NCBI GenBank assembly: GCA_958296295.1
Contig: OY282460.1
Location: 3,330,291-3,394,290 of the forward strand
Source: an uncultured Pseudomonadales bacterium
Lineage (GTDB): Bacteria; Pseudomonadota; Gammaproteobacteria; Pseudomonadales; Azotimanducaceae
DNA: 64,000 nt
Direction: 5' to 3'
In this document: one piece after another, positions 34,385-40,833 of the stretch
Position numbering within the stretch: position 1 is the first letter of the stretch
Layout of the letters: each line of letters starts with the position of its first letter
The notes under the pieces: generated by a model
Database searches by the model: none
What the model was told of the DNA's origin: nothing
Seen by the model: only the letters and a program-made list of their open reading frames with translations
Translations under genes and position numbers: made by a program

Positions 34385-35707
34385 CTAGCGGAACCGCCCG
34401 AAGCGCCGGCGGTCGCCGCGTTGAATCGTCAGCCAGATGGAACCTTCGCCGGCCAAGGCGTCGTTGAGCTCGTCCACGCTGCCGATGGACACGCGGTTCA
34501 CACGCAGGATCACGTCGCCGGCCTGCAACCCGAATTGGGCCGCCGGGCTGCCTTCCGCCACGGCAACCACTTCGACTCCGCGACCGTGGAGCTCGTGCTC
34601 TCTCGGCAGGTTGCGCAAATCGACGCCCGTGAGGGCTTGAGGCGTGGTGGGACGCCGTGCCCAAGTCGGCGCGTCCGACTCCGTGCCGATAGTGGCATCA
34701 AGCGTCTTCCGCCTGCCGTCCCGGACGATGCCGATTTCCACCTCGGTGCCGGCCGGCGTGTTGGCCACCCGCGCCACCAAGTCCCTGGGGTTCGCGATCT
34801 CCCGCTCGTTCAAGCTCACGATCACGTCTCCGGCCTCAATGCCGGCGTCTTCCGCGGCGGTGCCGGGCATCACTTCCTCGACCACCACGCCGCGAGGCGC
34901 CTTGAGGCCCAGCATCTCGACATCGTCGGCGCGCACTTCGTCGATGCCGACGCCAAGCAGGCCGCGTTTCACTTCGCCGTTCTCGGCCAGCTGGCTCGCC
35001 ACGAACCGTACCGTGTTGCTCGGCACCGCGAAACCGAGACCCGCGTTCACGCCGGTTGGCGAGACGATGGCGCTGTTGATGCCCACCAAGCGCCCGTCGA
35101 GATCCACCAACGCGCCGCCGGAGTTGCCCCTGTTGATCGCGGCGTCGGTTTGGATGAAATCCTGATAGGACGAGTTCATGCCGTCGCGCCCCAACGCGCT
35201 GACGATGCCGGACGTAACCGTGTGCCCCAGCTCTCCGAACGGATTGCCGATGGCCACCACGAAATCGCCCACCTCGATCTTGTCCGAGTCGCCGAGCGGC
35301 AGTTCGCGCAGATCGTCGGCGTCGATTTTGAGCAGCGCGATGTCCGTCGCCCGATCGCCGCCAACCACCTCGGCCTCGAACTTCCGTCCGTCTTCAAGCA
35401 GCACGACGATGTCGTCGGCGTTGTCGATCACATGGTGATTGGTCACCACATGGCCTTCGCCGGCGTCGATGATGACGCCGGCGCCGCCGCCCTGCCGCCG
35501 CCGGTAGTCCGGGGCGTCCTGGAAGAAAAAGCGCAGGCGCGGATCCGTGCGCACGCGCGCGCCGACCTCGATGTTCACCACCGCCGGCGTCACCTTCTTG
35601 AGCACCGGCGCGAAGGTGAGCTTGCCGTCGTGCGCCGCAGCAGTCCCCGCCGCCAGCGCGGCGGCTAGGGCGATGACGGCGGTAAACGTTCCAATGGTGC
35701 GGGTCAT
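34385..35707 (-). CDS. DegP/HtrA-family periplasmic serine protease with two PDZ domains
   Basis: Signal peptide, catalytic His region (VVTNHHVI), Asp (DIALLKI), Ser in NRGNSGGALVDLDGRLVGINSAI. Two PDZ-like segments. Confidence 0.9.
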   Translation of the reverse strand: MTRTIGTFTAVIALAAALAAGTAAAHDGKLTFAPVLKKVTPAVVNIEVGARVRTDPRLRFFFQDAPDYRRRQGGGAGVIIDAGEGHVVTNHHVIDNADDIVVLLEDGRKFEAEVVGGDRATDIALLKIDADDLRELPLGDSDKIEVGDFVVAIGNPFGELGHTVTSGIVSALGRDGMNSSYQDFIQTDAAINRGNSGGALVDLDGRLVGINSAIVSPTGVNAGLGFAVPSNTVRFVASQLAENGEVKRGLLGVGIDEVRADDVEMLGLKAPRGVVVEEVMPGTAAEDAGIEAGDVIVSLNEREIANPRDLVARVANTPAGTEVEIGIVRDGRRKTLDATIGTESDAPTWARRPTTPQALTGVDLRNLPREHELHGRGVEVVAVAEGSPAAQFGLQAGDVILRVNRVSIGSVDELNDALAGEGSIWLTIQRGDRRRFGRFR

Positions 35708-35888
35708 TCAGGGTCTCCTGTTCATTCCAGCGGCGCAAGGGGCGACCGCGGTTGTTTGATGGCGGCATCCGCCGATAGTTCAACCCCTGATCTGGCGTGG
35801 TCGCGGGCTCCGTTGCCAAAGCCGACATACGTCTTTAGGCCGCGCATCTGCTACGCTCTCTCGTCCTCAGCGCGGGGCGCGAGGTTGG

Positions 35889-36623
35889 ATGATGTCTCGG
35901 AGTTCCCCCGACATCGGTAGAGCACTTGCGCTTCTGCGCGAGGGGTTGGCACCGTTCGTGGAGCGTGAAGTGACGCGCTTGGCCAAAAGCGATCGGTTCG
36001 CCCACTTCCTACGGTCCAATCCCCAGCTGGGGAACAGAGTATTCGCGACTGGGACGTCTACGCCCTGCTCAAAGCGATGGAGCAACTGTGGGGTGAGGTT
36101 TTCCGCCACACGCTGGAGTCAATGGAACGCGGTTTCGTGTACGAGTTGAGTGGCTGGCGCAACAAATGGGCGCATCAAGAGCCGATTTCGCCGGCCGACG
36201 AGGACCGCGCTTTGGACACCACCGTTCGCCTTCTCCGCGCCGCCAAGGCGGAGACTCAGGCAGGGCAAGTGGCTCTACTTCGAGAGTCTCGCCAAGCTGG
36301 ACGAAAGCGCCCTCCCAACCTTCGCGCAGAGCCGTCGTCATACCGGCGCCCGCCGCCCGGTTCGACATCTATGTCGCAAGCGGACGAAATACGCCTGCAC
36401 GCGATGGAGAACCATGTGGCGCCATGGCGCGAATCGGGCTAAGGAGACGCTTGCCATCCGCGCCGGCGACATCGTGCGGGAGATGGCGCTTTCCCAAGCC
36501 ACACCCAATGTGTGCAGCGCTTTGGAGGGCCGCAAGTTCCAAGCCCAAGCCAATCTCGTTCTCGTCGGCCGCGAAGGGCCGCGCCGGAGCACGACGACCA
36601 CGTACTACTACCGCCAAGGTTGA
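35889..36623 (+). pseudogene. Swt1-like HEPN gene with C-terminal extension, broken by at least two frameshifts
   Basis: Three consecutive frames carry one apparent protein: ..IGRALALLREGLAPFVEREV.. / RDWDVYALLKAMEQLWGEVF..SGWRNKWAHQ (Rx4H HEPN motif) / ..ETLAIRAGDIVREMALSQATPNVCSALEGRKF... It could instead be separate small ORFs. Confidence 0.4.
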
Positions 36624-36836
36624 TTTGGGCATCGGCTCGCCGTTGATCCATCCGGCCAACGGAGCGCAGGAAGCCCCGTTGAAGTGCCCATTAGGGCGTC
36701 AGCCGGCAGCGTCGCAGCGCGCTTCGCGTTGTTGCCACGCCGCTCGATCTAGGCGCTCTCGCCACGGGGCAAGCGCTGGATTCCGAACAACGCGGGCGGA
36801 TGCCATCAGGCTTTCCCTCTGAAGCGATCGGCTTAC

Positions 36837-37247
36837 CTACTTGCCGCCGGCGAGCCCTTGGGCAAGGAACATGGCGGCCAGTTGGTTCAAGCTGACGCCT
36901 TCGGTTGCGGCGCGCCTCGCCAACCGCTGGTGCAGGCTCTTGGGAATGCGCTGCACGAACTGGCCGCTGTAGGTCTTCGGGGTTGGCAATTCGCCTTTGT
37001 CTTCGCGTTCGGCCGTGGTCCAAGCCTCGTAAGCATCGCGGGCTTCCGCAACGGCCAACGCCACGGTTTCGCCATCGGCCATGCACCCCGGGAGGTCTGG
37101 CACAGTCACCAGAAAGCCGCCGCCTTCATCGTCGGGAAGCGGATCGACGCGGATTGCGTAGTCCTCGAATCTCACGACGCTGCCTCGATCAACCTTACCA
37201 GCCCGGATGTAGACCGGCTTGATCGGCTTGGGCATTGGCACGGTCAT
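36837..37247 (-). CDS. hicB: HicB-family antitoxin (HicB fold + RHH/CopG-like C-terminus)
   Basis: ..GGGFLVTVPDLPGCMADGETVALAVAEARDAYEAW.. then ..SGQFVQRIPKSLHQRLARRAATEGVSLNQLAAMFLAQ... Internal ATG at 37247 used. No hicA is visible. Confidence 0.7.
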   Translation of the reverse strand: MTVPMPKPIKPVYIRAGKVDRGSVVRFEDYAIRVDPLPDDEGGGFLVTVPDLPGCMADGETVALAVAEARDAYEAWTTAEREDKGELPTPKTYSGQFVQRIPKSLHQRLARRAATEGVSLNQLAAMFLAQGLAGGK

Positions 37248-37379
37248 GTGTTGGCCAACAGTATTGGTCAAAACCGCATGGCTCGTGCCGCGCTGCCGCA
37301 ATCGGAGGCCACACGCGCGGCCACCGTGCGAACGTCGTCTGGCGACCAATCCGTCTTGGGACTGGTTCATGGCCGCCAG

Positions 37380-37514
37380 CAGCCGATGCACTCTTGTCAC
37401 GAAGCGCGTCTTGTCCACGTTGAGGCTGCCGTCCAAGCGGATGCCGCGGAAATCGGCGCGACCGTAGGGGATCTTGGGAGCGACGGGAGCGACGGTGTTC
37501 AGCGCTTCGGCCAT
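37380..37514 (-). pseudogene. N-terminal stub of a 'predicted AAA-ATPase' (AAA-ATPase_like/PD-(D/E)XK) gene, read through into hicB
   Basis: ..KIPYGRADFRGIRLDGSLNVDKTRFV.. resembles the conserved start of that family. The rest of the gene is missing. Confidence 0.4.
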
Positions 37515-37695
37515 CGCGCCACCCTACTGCCTTGTTCCGCCAAATGCGCTATGGGGATGGGTGATGGCTGGGCAGAAGCGTACTGAGGTGCCGGCCAACC
37601 ATGTGCGCCGGGCGACCCCGAACCCCGAAGTCGATTTGAAAGTCGGTGATGTTCGCCATGCTAAGCTCTCGGCCACTTCTGGGTAGGAGAGAGCC

Positions 37696-38298
37696 GTGCC
37701 GATCTACCGCCTCAACGAGAACCAGCAGCAGCAACTCCTCGAACAAGACGAGTATGGGATGGGCTACCAGCTCGCTGGAAATCTCCGTTACGTGTTCCTC
37801 AACGCCGAGATCGCCATTGATCTCGTCGACGGCGAGCTGAGCGCGGATGTCGAGTGGCTGAACGAGTTCCTGCCCCAAGAAGGTGCCGACCAAGCGATGC
37901 TCGACGGTCTCCCCGGCTACAACGGCGGTCTCGAAGTGGCCAAGCATGGCAGCTATCCATCCAAATCCGTTGCTAACGAGACATTCTGGCGCTATTCGGC
38001 GTTTCGATATGATCGGCGAATCCTAGCCGGCGGATCGGTTCTGCCCGGGACCTACGCGACCACGCAGAACGACTCGACGCTTGTAACCTCCGGCCTTGGT
38101 GCTGTCGGCCGTTACGCTTTGCCCAACCCCCTGTCAGCACGCTTTGCCCGCGTACTCACGCCACCCGCGGGCCAAGCAATGAGATGTGGCAACTCCGCTC
38201 CGAAATTCGGCCAAGCCGGCGGCGGTGTGGAGATACTGTTTACGGGAAGGTTGCCGCCCAAATCCGCACGAAGCGCGACGCCGATTGCCGAGAGATAG
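37696..38298 (+). CDS. Two-domain protein: N-terminal 'GMGYQ' domain + C-terminal TNT-like (NAD+ glycohydrolase toxin-like) domain
   Basis: GTG preceded by AGGAGAG. The C-terminal half (..GTYATT..GAVGRYALPNP..VLTPPAGQAMRCGNSAPKFGQAGGGVEILF) resembles the ..RALPP...G.IAPWFGQPGGG.Q signature I recall for the TNT/DUF4237 family. Unverified. Confidence 0.5.
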   Translation: MPIYRLNENQQQQLLEQDEYGMGYQLAGNLRYVFLNAEIAIDLVDGELSADVEWLNEFLPQEGADQAMLDGLPGYNGGLEVAKHGSYPSKSVANETFWRYSAFRYDRRILAGGSVLPGTYATTQNDSTLVTSGLGAVGRYALPNPLSARFARVLTPPAGQAMRCGNSAPKFGQAGGGVEILFTGRLPPKSARSATPIAER

Positions 38299-38300
38299 AC

Positions 38301-38513
38301 ATGCGTGTTCAACTCAACGAGAAATGGTCGGCTACTCTCTGCGAAATCCCGGAGAACGGGATGGGCTACCAGCGTGTCGACGTTCTGCTCCGCAGCGGGC
38401 GGAAGGTCAGGGACGTGCTGGTCTTCAACGCCGAGGAAATGGAATGGCCCGACGAGAGGCGGATCCAATCGGACGACATTGCCGAAATGGTTCCAAGCGA
38501 TGACTGGGTGTAG
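38301..38513 (+). CDS. Small protein paralogous to the N-terminal domain of the preceding gene
   Basis: ATG 2 nt after the upstream TAG. QLNEK..LCEIPENGMGYQRV...VLVFNAEEM aligns with RLNEN..LLEQDEYGMGYQLA...YVFLNAEIA of 37696-38298. Confidence 0.55.
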   Translation: MRVQLNEKWSATLCEIPENGMGYQRVDVLLRSGRKVRDVLVFNAEEMEWPDERRIQSDDIAEMVPSDDWV

Positions 38514-38922
38514 TTGCATAGGGGAGGGAGCATGGCTGCCGCGGTCAACGATGCTCCGGCGGTGCTCGAAGCCCTGCTCGACGCGGGGGCCAAGCGGGAC
38601 GCCCGCATCGTAGGCGGCCATACGGCTACTGCACCTCGCCGCACGGCTCCTGTTCCCCGACGGCCCGCATGGCTCCGCCCCACACTTTAGCCCGCTCCGA
38701 CCGTGGTGCCCGCCCGCGACCACACCGGTTCGACGCGCGTCTACGAACCGCCCCTCGAACAAAGCCGCATGACCGACCACGGCGATTGCTCACAATTTGT
38801 CGCACACTCGCCTCAACCCTGCTCGGTTGCAATCGGTCGCGATGGTGCTATGGTCTGGTCGTGCCTTTGCCCACCCTCAAGTTGCCGGCCGCCGTGGCGG
38901 CTCTCGTTGTCAAGGGAAGACG

Positions 38923-40833
38923 ATGAGCAGCGGCCAGACGCTCCACGGGGCGCCGTGGCATCTCGCCGGCGAATATCCAAGCCCGGCTTCAGCGCAGGTG
39001 AAGGGCGATCTGGCGGCGGTGGATCGTCTGCTCGGCGCGGTGGAGCGGCGCAACGAAACCCTCGAGCCGTTGCTCGCCACAGCCACTGCGCCGGCTTCGA
39101 CTGTCAACGCCGCGGCCAGCGCGATCGCCGAGGCGCGGGCGATATTCGGCCTGCTCGAACAGGCGGAAAAGCCGCTGCAAGACCTCGACACCTACGCGGA
39201 CTGCCTGCTTAGCGGCGACAGCCAGGATCGCGACGCGCAGGCGTTGCTTGGGCGTCTGCAATCCGTACACAAGCGCTTCGCCGAAGCGGGCGAGCCGCTG
39301 TCGCAGTTCTTGGATCGGGCGCCGCAGGCGGTGGTGGACGGCTATTTGGCGCACCCGGGCACCGAGCCCTCGCGTTTCCAAGTGGCGCATTCGCGCAAGC
39401 GCCGGCATGAAGTGCTGCCGCTCGCGCAGGAGACCTTGACGGCGGCCCTCGCCCAAGACGGCATTCACGCTTGGGGCCGGTTGTACGACCAGCTGGCCGG
39501 CTCCTTGGCTTGCGACGTCACGGTGAATGGCGAAGAGCGCCGGATGGGGCTTGCCGCGGCCAGCGCCTTGATGCTGAGAGCGGACGATCAGCTACGGGAG
39601 AACGCTTGGCGGGCGATGAACGGCGCATGGGCGCAGCATGAAGACTCCTGCGCCGCCGCCATCAACGCCATCGCCGGCTGGCGCTTGGAGATGTGCCGCC
39701 GGCGCAGCCGTCAAACACAGGCCGCCGGCCGGCGCGACGTTCACTTTCTGGACGCCGCTGTGCATGCCAACCGCATCGAGCGGGCCACGTTGGATACGGT
39801 GCTCGGCATTGCCGAGGAAGGTCGCGCCTTGGCGCGTCGGGCGGCGCGGCTGCAAGCCAAGGCCTATGGCAAGGCGCGCTACGGCCCGTGGGATCTGCGG
39901 GCGCCGGCCCCGGCGGCGGGGGAGGCCGAAGAGGGTATCGCCTACCGACAAGCCGTGGAGCTGATCGCCGAAGCCTACGGCGAGGTGCATCCGCGCATGG
40001 GCGATTTCGTGCGGATGATGGCGAAGAACCGCTGGATCGAAGGCACGTGGGGCGACAACAAGCGGCCGGGCGCCTACTGCACCAGGTTTCGCAAGTCGCG
40101 CACTCCGCGCGTGTACATGACCTACGCCGGCGGCACCTCGGACGTCATCATCCTCGCCCACGAGCTGGGCCACGCCTTCCACGCTTGGACGATGCGCGAC
40201 CTGCCGGAGTGTCAAAGCCGCTACGGAATGTCCATCGCCGAGACGGCCAGCACCTTCGGCGAAGCCACCGTGCGGGCGGCGCTGCTGCAACGAGCCAAGA
40301 CGCCGGCCGAGCGCCTCGGCATCGCCTGGGAGGAGGCGGCTGCGCTTACATCCTTCCTGCTCAACATTCCCGCGCGCTTCGAGTTCGAACGCAATTTCTA
40401 CGAGGCGCGCGCCGCGCGGCCGCAACGCCCGGACGAGCTCAAGGCTTTGATGAGCGCCGCTTGGCGGAAGTGGTACGGCGATTCGCTGGCCGAGCCCGAT
40501 CCGCTGTTTTGGGCGAGCAAGCTGCACTTCTACATATCGGGTTTGAGCTTCTACAACTTCCCGTACCTGTTCGGCTACCTGTTCAGCTTGGGTGTGGACG
40601 CGCGGCGCGAAGCCTTGGGCGATGCGTTCTTCCCGCGCTACGAGGCGCTGCTGCTGGATACCGGGCGCATGACGGCTGAAGAGCTGGCCGCCAAGCATCT
40701 GCAGGCGGATCTGACACGCCCGGAGTTCTGGCGCGGCACGCTGGAGCGTTTGGCGGAGCGGGTCGATCACTTCGAGATGCTGGTCGAGAAAGCGGCGATG
40801 GCAGAGCGAACAGCGGCGGAGGCGCGAGGGTGA
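38923..40833 (+). CDS. M3-family oligoendopeptidase (PepF-like)
   Basis: Zinc motif ILAHELGHAFH with a downstream E in ..SIAETASTFGE. ATG at 38923 follows AAGGGAAG. About 636 aa. Confidence 0.85.
   Translation: MSSGQTLHGAPWHLAGEYPSPASAQVKGDLAAVDRLLGAVERRNETLEPLLATATAPASTVNAAASAIAEARAIFGLLEQAEKPLQDLDTYADCLLSGDSQDRDAQALLGRLQSVHKRFAEAGEPLSQFLDRAPQAVVDGYLAHPGTEPSRFQVAHSRKRRHEVLPLAQETLTAALAQDGIHAWGRLYDQLAGSLACDVTVNGEERRMGLAAASALMLRADDQLRENAWRAMNGAWAQHEDSCAAAINAIAGWRLEMCRRRSRQTQAAGRRDVHFLDAAVHANRIERATLDTVLGIAEEGRALARRAARLQAKAYGKARYGPWDLRAPAPAAGEAEEGIAYRQAVELIAEAYGEVHPRMGDFVRMMAKNRWIEGTWGDNKRPGAYCTRFRKSRTPRVYMTYAGGTSDVIILAHELGHAFHAWTMRDLPECQSRYGMSIAETASTFGEATVRAALLQRAKTPAERLGIAWEEAAALTSFLLNIPARFEFERNFYEARAARPQRPDELKALMSAAWRKWYGDSLAEPDPLFWASKLHFYISGLSFYNFPYLFGYLFSLGVDARREALGDAFFPRYEALLLDTGRMTAEELAAKHLQADLTRPEFWRGTLERLAERVDHFEMLVEKAAMAERTAAEARG

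Follow-up and report, generated by a model that had tools for sequence, protein, structure and literature searches.

The 64,000-nucleotide stretch of contig OY282460.1 analysed here (the window), from the genome assembly of an uncultured Pseudomonadales bacterium of the Azotimanducaceae, contains two small plus-strand open reading frames (ORFs), ORF1 and ORF2, and the beginning of the longer ORF1 protein recurs as the shorter ORF2 protein. Our analysis suggests that ORF1 joins a domain of the NAD-consuming toxin type to a copy of its probable immunity protein, designated here the GMGYQ domain, and that ORF2 encodes the same domain in free form. The features of the pair, all on the plus strand, are as follows.

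37685..37693, plus strand: Shine-Dalgarno-like sequence AGGAGAGAG, with its AGGAG core 6 nt before the GTG at 37696.
37696..38298, plus strand: ORF1, read from the sequence, with a GTG start, 200 amino acids (aa) and a TAG stop at 38296-38298; predicted to consist of a GMGYQ (immunity-like) domain, a variable linker and a TNT/Tne2-like domain of the ADP-ribosyltransferase (ART) fold.
37696..37836, plus strand: N-terminal GMGYQ domain of ORF1, aa 1-47, with the motifs EYGMGYQ (GMGYQ at 37756-37770) and FLNAE.
37837..37944, plus strand: variable linker, aa 48-83, the least conserved part of ORF1, differing in both length and sequence among homologues.
37945..38295, plus strand: C-terminal toxin-type domain of ORF1, aa 84-200, matched by the C-domain hidden Markov model (HMM) at E 7.5e-49.
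38301..38513, plus strand: ORF2, read from the sequence, with an ATG start and 70 aa; a free-standing GMGYQ protein (GMGYQ at 38358-38372, VFNAEE) and putative trans-acting immunity protein or antitoxin.

Both ORFs are intact, and only 2 nt lie between the stop of ORF1 and the ATG of ORF2, which is translationally coupled to it. The coordinates, the stop and the ATG are exactly those of the original prediction, which had described two tightly coupled plus-strand ORFs; the good Shine-Dalgarno sequence that it placed ahead of the first ORF and the C-terminal motifs that it quoted for the 200-aa protein are likewise found in the sequence. A longer ORF1 is ruled out because a TAG lies in frame at 37684-37686, and the starts of homologues (MPIYRL, MVIYRL or MIYRL for ORF1 and MRVQL for ORF2) agree with both start codons in the window. 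A promoter and terminator scan of the pair gave nothing informative in this high-GC DNA.

Comparison at profile level is decisive for the homology between aa 1-47 of ORF1 and ORF2. Pairwise BLASTP of the ORF1 N-terminus with ORF2 shows only a modest similarity of 11/21 identities (E 0.001). An HMM built from the N-termini of long homologues alone matches not only the window ORF2 (4.4e-7) but also the small proteins encoded at about 25 further loci (1e-5 to 1e-11). Comparison of the N-domain alignment with the small-protein alignment by hhalign results in a probability of 98% and an E-value of 2.3e-13, which bears out the earlier claim that the first ~50 residues of ORF1 align with the 70-aa protein. 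The motifs PE-x-G-M-G-Y-Q and (L/F)-N-A-E are common to both copies. A chance similarity between them was considered and rejected on the strength of the N-terminus HMM matches and the hhalign E-value.

Within ORF1 itself, the N-domain HMM matches 37699-37830 (E 2.5e-19), and E19, G21, G23 and Q25 of this domain are invariant in the family alignment. ORF2 belongs to a small family of 41 homologues ranging from 48 to 110 aa, which is more conserved than the ORF1-type N-domains and has 11 invariant residues (L13, E18, G20, M21, G22, V26, V41, F42, N43, A44 and E45). The AlphaFold2 (AF2) model of ORF2, with a predicted local distance difference test score (pLDDT) of 85, displays a small beta-rich fold with one helix, and the PE-x-GMGYQ motif is located on a loop. 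Foldseek searches of the PDB and BFVD with the small protein found no significant structural neighbour, no DNA-binding domain of the helix-turn-helix (HTH), ribbon-helix-helix (RHH) or AbrB type was recognised in ORF2 by Pfam, NCBIfam or structural search, and no 'GMGYQ' domain was found in the literature searched. Without a match in Pfam, NCBIfam, PADLOC, PHROGs, the PDB or that literature, the modelled GMGYQ domain would be a new immunity fold.

The first search for homologues of ORF1 returned 437 proteins, and every one of the best 120 of these is unnamed or 'hypothetical' and without a Pfam domain. A combined profile of long and small proteins was searched against 1.84 billion representatives (clusters at 50% identity) and matched 1508 clusters at E<=1e-3, 317 of them at E<=1e-30; this profile has 202 positions, corresponds through sequence weighting to the whole long protein, and is silent on other GMGYQ fusions. 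The best 150 of the 1508 clusters are 156-297 aa in length and nearly all aligned end to end, with a few shorter entries lacking the N-terminal part. Proteins missed by the N-domain HMM carry the motif by eye (PELGMGFHFG...VLNAE, PEAGMGVHF). Judged from these alignments, the two-domain architecture is common to essentially every family member examined, and the antitoxin-type and toxin-type domains share one polypeptide in the full-length members examined (84 loci and the 150 listed representatives). The 80 genome loci fetched come from Gammaproteobacteria, Alphaproteobacteria, Acidobacteriota, Bacteroidota, Verrucomicrobiota, Planctomycetota and others, and the closest among them belong to Candidatus Azotimanducaceae and to Pseudomonadales metagenome-assembled genomes.

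Neither protein of the window has a match in Pfam, NCBIfam, PADLOC or PHROGs. Searched against PDB sequences, ORF1 alone gave a chance match to tamavidin at E 0.15 and the profile gave zero matches, while tblastn of ORF1 against a plasmid collection returned one match, an unpaired Rhizobium gene.

The fold of the C-terminal domain was approached through an AF2 model of ORF1 built with 53 sequences (pLDDT 91; predicted template modelling score (pTM) 0.88), in which the linker has the lowest confidence (block pLDDT 75-80). In a Foldseek search of the PDB with this model, ranks 1-18 are all NAD-glycohydrolase or ART toxins, of a kind that immunity proteins neutralise, and unrelated folds appear from rank 19. 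The top match is the Tne2-Tni2 complex 6b12 (E 8.5e-4, probability 1.0, template modelling (TM) score on the target 0.64) and the second is Rhs1-CT (6xtd); the TNT-domain NADases of Aspergillus (AfNADase), Fusarium and Neurospora, Tse6 and TNT itself (4qlp, E 0.28) are among the others. By this model, aa 84-200 of ORF1 have the TNT/Tne2/Tse6 NADase (ART-like) fold.

Pfam comparison is consistent with a distant relationship. Weak TNT matches occur in 36 of 53 relatives, with a best E-value of 1e-3; ten relatives scanned singly scored ~13-15 bits against a PF14021 gathering score of 27, and these matches are limited to profile positions ~47-73 of 88, which is the FGQAGGGVE motif. The window ORF1 itself had no match to PF14021 at E<=10. 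The original prediction had read a TNT pattern in ORF1, which is correct as regards fold and motif: a TNT/ART-like fold is present over residues ~90-200, as seen in Foldseek ranks 1-18 and the weak TNT matches. Membership of Pfam TNT proper was rejected because of the sub-threshold score and a Gln-to-Glu difference.

Conservation in the C-domain is concentrated in a few places. R99 (37990-37992), D106, R108, R139-Y-A-L-P and G175-G-G-V-E179 (E179 at 38230-38232) are invariant across the family, Y120, T122 and T123 are nearly so, and every family-invariant residue is intact in the window copy of ORF1. R99, Y120/T122/T123, R139 and E179 are candidate catalytic-type residues. TNT Q822, AfNADase Q194, Tne2 Q387 and Tse6 Q413 are the catalytic glutamines of their enzymes, and an acidic residue occupies this position in other NADases, cyclases and ARTs (PMC7955114, PMC6398120). 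In the ORF1 family an invariant Glu (E179, in GGGVE) is present at the position of the TNT/Tne2/Tse6 Gln, a correspondence drawn from the motif and the Pfam match range and not from a residue-level structural alignment. In the ORF1 model, R99 is placed on one strand and Y-x-T-T on the next, and together with E179 they would resemble the R-S-E pattern of ADP-ribosyltransferases. Use of NAD+ by the C-domain is well supported by the modelled fold, and it is possible from the conserved residues that the activity is that of an ADP-ribosyltransferase rather than of a NADase.

The most direct indication of what the GMGYQ domain might do comes from an Rhs locus. A homologue search with a GMGYQ-only alignment produced 81 candidates and 5 matches, one of which, P0285, led to this locus (L164). 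P0285, with 72 aa, is a GMGYQ protein that scores 42 bits with the small-family HMM, and its gene follows that of a 2233-aa RHS-repeat protein at a distance of 12 nt. Beyond its canonical DPLGL cleavage motif, the Rhs protein ends in ~110 residues (NETFIRYE...PGTYAAP...SRYNLPYP...GGSGAEVFF) that match the ORF1 C-domain HMM with 27.4 bits and a conditional E-value of 1.2e-10. In Rhs systems, immunity to the C-terminal domain of the toxin is provided by the product of the gene that directly follows. The two domains, encoded by separate toxin and immunity genes in L164, are fused in ORF1, and this Rosetta-stone argument suggests that GMGYQ binds and neutralises the toxin domain. From the sequence evidence, GMGYQ is a probable immunity domain of the ORF1-type toxin domain, and the suggestion in the original prediction that the free domain might neutralise the effector gains independent support from the presence of a GMGYQ protein in the immunity slot of a homologous Rhs toxin.

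A tblastn search of plasmids with the L164 Rhs C-terminal domain found no match. The L164 contig (9076-10219 and 7479-9065, both on the minus strand) looks toxin-rich: besides the Rhs gene it has another large gene of polymorphic-toxin-like type (DUF6531, 2509 aa), which is followed by small ORFs of its own, and an integrase (rve) gene is situated between both toxin genes.

Pairing was counted from both sides, with homologues of ORF1 termed long genes and those of ORF2 small genes. The long-gene census covers 84 loci (83 fetched and the window), and the small gene is directly downstream in 26 of them (31%), with gaps of -3 to +13 nt. The small-gene census covers 80 metagenome loci, 72 of them assessable; a long gene is directly upstream of 56 (78%), and the other 16 small genes are orphans. 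The pairing expected in the original prediction is thus conserved in both directions. When the flanking ORFs were clustered all against all, the small gene was the only recurrent partner; GroEL occurs near 5 related alphaproteobacterial loci via synteny. A Pfam census of 38 other loci assigned 142 flanking ORFs to 86 families, which are housekeeping families plus a few of the restriction-modification (RM), HEPN, RadC and FRG types. No rhs, PAAR, VgrG or cdi gene is recurrent near long-gene loci. The ORF1/ORF2 module is self-contained and mobile. A secreted-effector reading was rejected, no secretion-associated domain or neighbour having been found.

Several loci show the pair in other states. 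In L096 (3748-3996) and L158 (528-1079) an orphan small gene stands beside an N-domain-only remnant of a long gene, and in L115, L129, L141 and L161 the long gene is split by frameshifts and the small gene is intact. Such loci may have kept immunity while the toxin decays, or their split or remnant long genes may be assembly errors. An intact partner beside a decayed toxin is a pattern typical of orphan antitoxin and immunity genes. In L166 (2918-3136; also on a 23.6-kb JGI contig) an orphan GMGYQ gene, P0283, is found inside a dense toxin-antitoxin (TA) island that includes RelE with an MqsA-like HTH protein, DUF4926, DUF6883, Unstab_antitox and DUF2442. Three acidobacterial loci (L017, L039 and L047) have in common a ~640-aa neighbour with the conserved C-terminus ...NPHTGRYGFFP, encoded 1-3 kb downstream of the long gene on the minus strand; it may accompany the long gene in this lineage specifically.

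Free copies of the GMGYQ domain are also present in phages. A first scan of viral sequences with two C-domain motifs yielded no long-gene relatives. Later scans of IMG/VR, which used the small-protein alignment and a back-translated P-E-x-G-M-G-Y-Q pattern followed by an HMM filter, found toxin-less free GMGYQ genes on 10 contigs (L168 (= L198), L169, L174, L180, L181, L190, L191, L194, L195 and L203). On seven of these (L168, L169, L180, L190, L191, L194 and L195) the neighbours that were compared match phage families, namely terminase, portal, UvsX-like recombinase, DNA polymerase, HNH endonucleases and helicase. For L174 and L181, the one neighbour compared in each had no match to phage families, and L203 agrees with L195 in its small protein and neighbouring ORFs. 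A complete long gene is present on two viral contigs: that of L184 lies ~0.7 kb upstream of ORFs which resemble terminase subunits by eye only, and that of L200 is accompanied by a small gene and adjoins an integrase-like ORF. Among GenBank phage genomes, the small proteins had no match. To judge from these sequences, the phage copies fit a role in counter-defence as antitoxin mimics.

In two of the viral contigs the GMGYQ domain heads a larger protein. At L169 (3837-4724 of UViG_3300025327_000574) it occupies aa 1-66 of a reading frame that continues, with no stop in between, into a prohead protease (Peptidase_S78, Pfam E 8e-48), directly after the terminase and portal genes; this fusion may be a virion-associated inhibitor or could result from a lost stop codon or a sequencing artefact. 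At L168 (4001-4936 of UViG_3300037088_001155) GMGYQ heads a protein of at least 312 aa for which neither Pfam nor PHROG gave a match; the protein is cut off by the end of the contig and is encoded after helicase, replication-initiator and HNH genes.

With moderate confidence, we propose that ORF1 and ORF2 form a TA or abortive-infection-type module made of a cis-immunised NAD-consuming toxin and a trans-acting spare immunity protein. ORF1 would be an intracellular, self-neutralised toxin, the C-domain of which consumes NAD+ through glycohydrolase activity or in the ADP-ribosylation of a target. Its N-terminal GMGYQ domain would be a copy of the cognate immunity protein, tethered via the variable linker and restraining the enzyme in cis, and it is because of this proposed tethered domain that most family members would need no partner gene. 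ORF2 might bind the toxin domain in trans as a spare antitoxin which buffers leaky activation or sets the threshold for firing; buffering of leakiness and a labile-antitoxin timer are both plausible reasons for the added free copy. By analogy with CapRel, a trigger would release the enzyme and so arrest the cell; this trigger could be phage infection, the disappearance of the small protein, taken to be labile, or an event that cleaves or displaces the N-domain. Phages might counter with free GMGYQ proteins of their own. Of this picture, the fold class, the homology between both GMGYQ copies, their conserved adjacency to the toxin gene, the pairing of an Rhs toxin with GMGYQ and the phage-borne orphans are shown by the analysis, and physical inhibition, enzyme chemistry, toxicity, trigger and defence role are inferred.

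Several observations weigh against this proposal. In 58 of the 84 long-gene loci (69%) there is no small gene and no other conserved partner, from which it follows that many family members can do without ORF2. The original prediction had proposed a survey of the homologues for enrichment in defence islands as well as for co-occurrence; such enrichment is not established, as the Pfam census is heterogeneous, with many housekeeping neighbours and scattered defence genes. Neither protein matched PADLOC-DB v2 at E<=1. The Rhs/GMGYQ example comes from a single locus (two contigs with identical sequence). The family is sub-threshold for Pfam TNT and has Glu in place of Gln, which makes the chemistry uncertain. 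Occlusion of the active site by the N-domain is conjectural; the pTM of 0.88 suggests, in favour of the proposal, that the two domains are packed against each other in one set orientation. Finally, the phage GMGYQ genes could instead protect lysogens from attack by Rhs or type VI secretion system (T6SS) toxins.

A more specific reading, which we hold only tentatively and regard as much less probable, is that the pair represents an unrecognised one- or two-gene abortive-infection system in which the cis GMGYQ domain is both lock and infection sensor. Phages would answer it with free copies, some of them fused to virion-assembly proteins such as the prohead protease, and this inhibitor might be packaged together with the DNA and delivered with it.

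It is unlikely that ORF1 is a regulated ADP-ribosyltransferase which modifies one particular protein, nucleic acid or small molecule and is not a suicide toxin, with GMGYQ serving as target-recognition or regulatory module or as acceptor, and ORF2 as a paralogous regulator or substrate. Such an enzyme would be in keeping with the invariant E179 in place of Gln and with the placement of R99 and Y-x-T-T on successive strands, as in R-S-E ARTs, and the second-best Foldseek match, Rhs1-CT (6xtd), is an ADP-ribosyltransferase toxin. The many loci without a separate antitoxin, which are the majority, and the many housekeeping neighbours would suit it too. However, in L164 the homologous domain forms the C-terminal toxin of an Rhs protein and a GMGYQ protein fills the immunity slot, small genes are present as orphans both in phages and next to decayed long genes, and no conserved candidate target gene was found nearby. 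Target-modifying ART-fold toxins are, moreover, still toxins, so that this explanation differs from the self-neutralised toxin proposed above in lethality only.

It is less likely still that GMGYQ domains bind mainly each other and not the enzyme. In that case the N-domain would serve for oligomerisation or sensing, and ORF2, as a decoy or threshold-setter, would cap or compete at the same interface and control an assembly-dependent activation of the NAD-consuming domain. Mimicry or competition of this kind had been put forward in the original prediction, assembly activates many bacterial NADase effectors (TIR, SIR2), and the small family is more conserved than the N-domains. However, the Rhs toxin of L164 has no GMGYQ domain of its own and yet is followed by a GMGYQ protein, which points to binding between GMGYQ and toxin, and the high pTM suggests that the N-domain is docked on the C-domain.

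Least probable of all is an alternative which the original prediction had offered and which was rejected on architecture and genomic context. Here the C-terminal part of a polymorphic toxin and the accompanying immunity gene would have been orphaned by displacement from an rhs, cdi or T6SS locus, with only immunity under selection. The homology of the C-domain to an Rhs C-terminal domain and of the small protein to its downstream protein, the T6SS/Rhs effectors among the structural neighbours and the existence of orphan small genes are outweighed by the long protein's own start codon and Shine-Dalgarno sequence, by a uniform size of ~200-300 aa with an N-terminal GMGYQ domain in the best 150 of the 1508 clusters and the 84 loci, by the lack of any recurrent rhs, PAAR, VgrG or cdi gene nearby, and by the invariance of the catalytic-type residues, because of which the enzyme appears to be under purifying selection.

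Comparison with known systems places the proposed self-neutralised toxin between several of them. TNT-IFT of M. tuberculosis, Tne2-Tni2 of P. protegens, Tse6-Tsi6 of P. aeruginosa and the fungal NADases are of the same fold class as ORF1 by Foldseek, and TNT-type toxins share with it a glycine-rich C-terminal motif (FGQAGGGVE in ORF1) and an Arg-x-x-L-P motif. A small dedicated neutralising protein is encoded next to TNT-type toxins, and ORF2 would probably be its counterpart. In contrast to these toxins, ORF1 is below the Pfam threshold, has Glu for the catalytic Gln and has no secretion or delivery domain, and the putative immunity domain is both fused in cis and encoded in trans. The GMGYQ fold also has no PDB match, although the PDB includes complexes of IFT, Tni2 and Tsi6 (4qlp, 6b12 and 4zv0). 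Rhs toxin/immunity pairs offer a second comparison, since the Rhs protein of L164 has the homologous toxin domain after DPLGL and a GMGYQ protein 12 nt further on. ORF1, however, has no Rhs repeats, PAAR, LXG, CdiA or other delivery module and none adjoining it, and its family consists overwhelmingly of stand-alone genes of ~200-240 aa. In polymorphic toxin systems the gene in the immunity position lies directly downstream, as ORF2 does at 2 nt, which would suit an immunity function.

CapRel(SJ46) is a fused toxin and antitoxin which is autoinhibited and in which the antitoxin domain doubles as phage sensor (PMC9712102). Like ORF1, it has toxin and antitoxin domains in one polypeptide, and it may serve as a mechanistic template for the cis GMGYQ domain. 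ORF1 differs from it in having an ART fold and not a RelA/SpoT-like one and in the order of its domains (antitoxin N-terminal, toxin C-terminal), and its family differs in the free copy of the antitoxin domain found downstream in 31% of loci and in having no known trigger. Type II TA modules resemble ORF1/ORF2 in their compact two-gene unit, conserved adjacency and diverse flanks. RES-Xre, MbcT-MbcA, DarT-DarG and ParS-ParT are intracellular two-gene modules with a cognate neutraliser and a toxin that uses NAD+, either degrading it or ADP-ribosylating with it. In the searches run, ORF1 showed no sequence or Foldseek similarity to the RES, MbcT, DarT or ParT toxins, and unlike these ART-fold type II modules the pair has no HTH or macrodomain antitoxin, has the toxin gene first and has an antitoxin copy fused in cis. 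HipBST has an antitoxin, HipS, that is similar to the N-terminal subdomain of HipA-type kinases, and a toxin that has lost this domain. There too a small antitoxin is homologous to the N-terminal domain of a toxin lineage; however, ORF1 keeps its N-domain and the second copy is free, and the folds and chemistry are unrelated. The arrangement of immunity in cis plus trans is not described in the defence catalogue or literature searched, and to our knowledge no described system has it.

If the proposal holds, it would add a widespread small family (~1500 clusters at 50% identity, in many phyla) to the NAD-targeting toxins and would define GMGYQ as a new immunity fold. Fused and free immunity copies would amount to a natural experiment on the restraint and release of autoinhibited toxins, and would link polymorphic Rhs toxins, TA modules and phage defence and counter-defence, fields that are usually apart. 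The system is also tractable, with proteins of 200 and 70 aa, catalytic candidates in R99 and E179, and phage homologues as putative inhibitors.

In the window, the pair is located in a ~3-kb region (35800-38600) in which the GC content dips to 0.59-0.63 as against 0.68-0.70 in the flanks. The other genes of this region and its flanks are listed below.

34385-35707, minus strand: DegP-like protease, one flank of the islet.
36077-36442, plus strand: truncated Swt1-like HEPN protein (Pfam HEPN_Swt1, E 3.5e-15, profile positions 59-113 of 115 only).
36837-37514, minus strand: HicB-family antitoxin, with HicB, HicB_lk_antitox and RHH in aa ~120-217.
38797-40833: M3 oligopeptidase, the other flank, followed by a DUF3604 protein.

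The composition of the sequence suggests that this low-GC islet, with the HEPN fragment, HicB and ORF1/ORF2, was horizontally acquired. The HEPN fragment is likely, from its truncated match, to be a pseudogene of a HEPN-containing defence or TA protein; an ORF in another frame (35889-36149, plus strand) overlaps it upstream and may be its frameshifted N-terminal part. No HicA toxin ORF was recognised beside the window HicB. The original prediction had described a neighbourhood full of decayed defence and TA genes, and this is borne out in part, by the truncated HEPN_Swt1 fragment and the HicB ORF. Just downstream of ORF2, a short ORF (38514-38690, plus strand; MAAAVNDAPAVLEALLDAGAKRDARIVGGHTA...) looks by eye like a lone ankyrin-repeat fragment; this appearance is unsupported by Pfam, where it has no match at E<=0.01. 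The HicB ORF has an N-terminal extension of ~110 aa, the start of which (IPYGRADFRGIRLDGSLNVDKTRFV) resembles by eye the AAA-ATPase-like N-terminus of PF09820. An intact AAA-ATPase_like/PDDEXK_9 gene is present near the homologous pair of locus L001.

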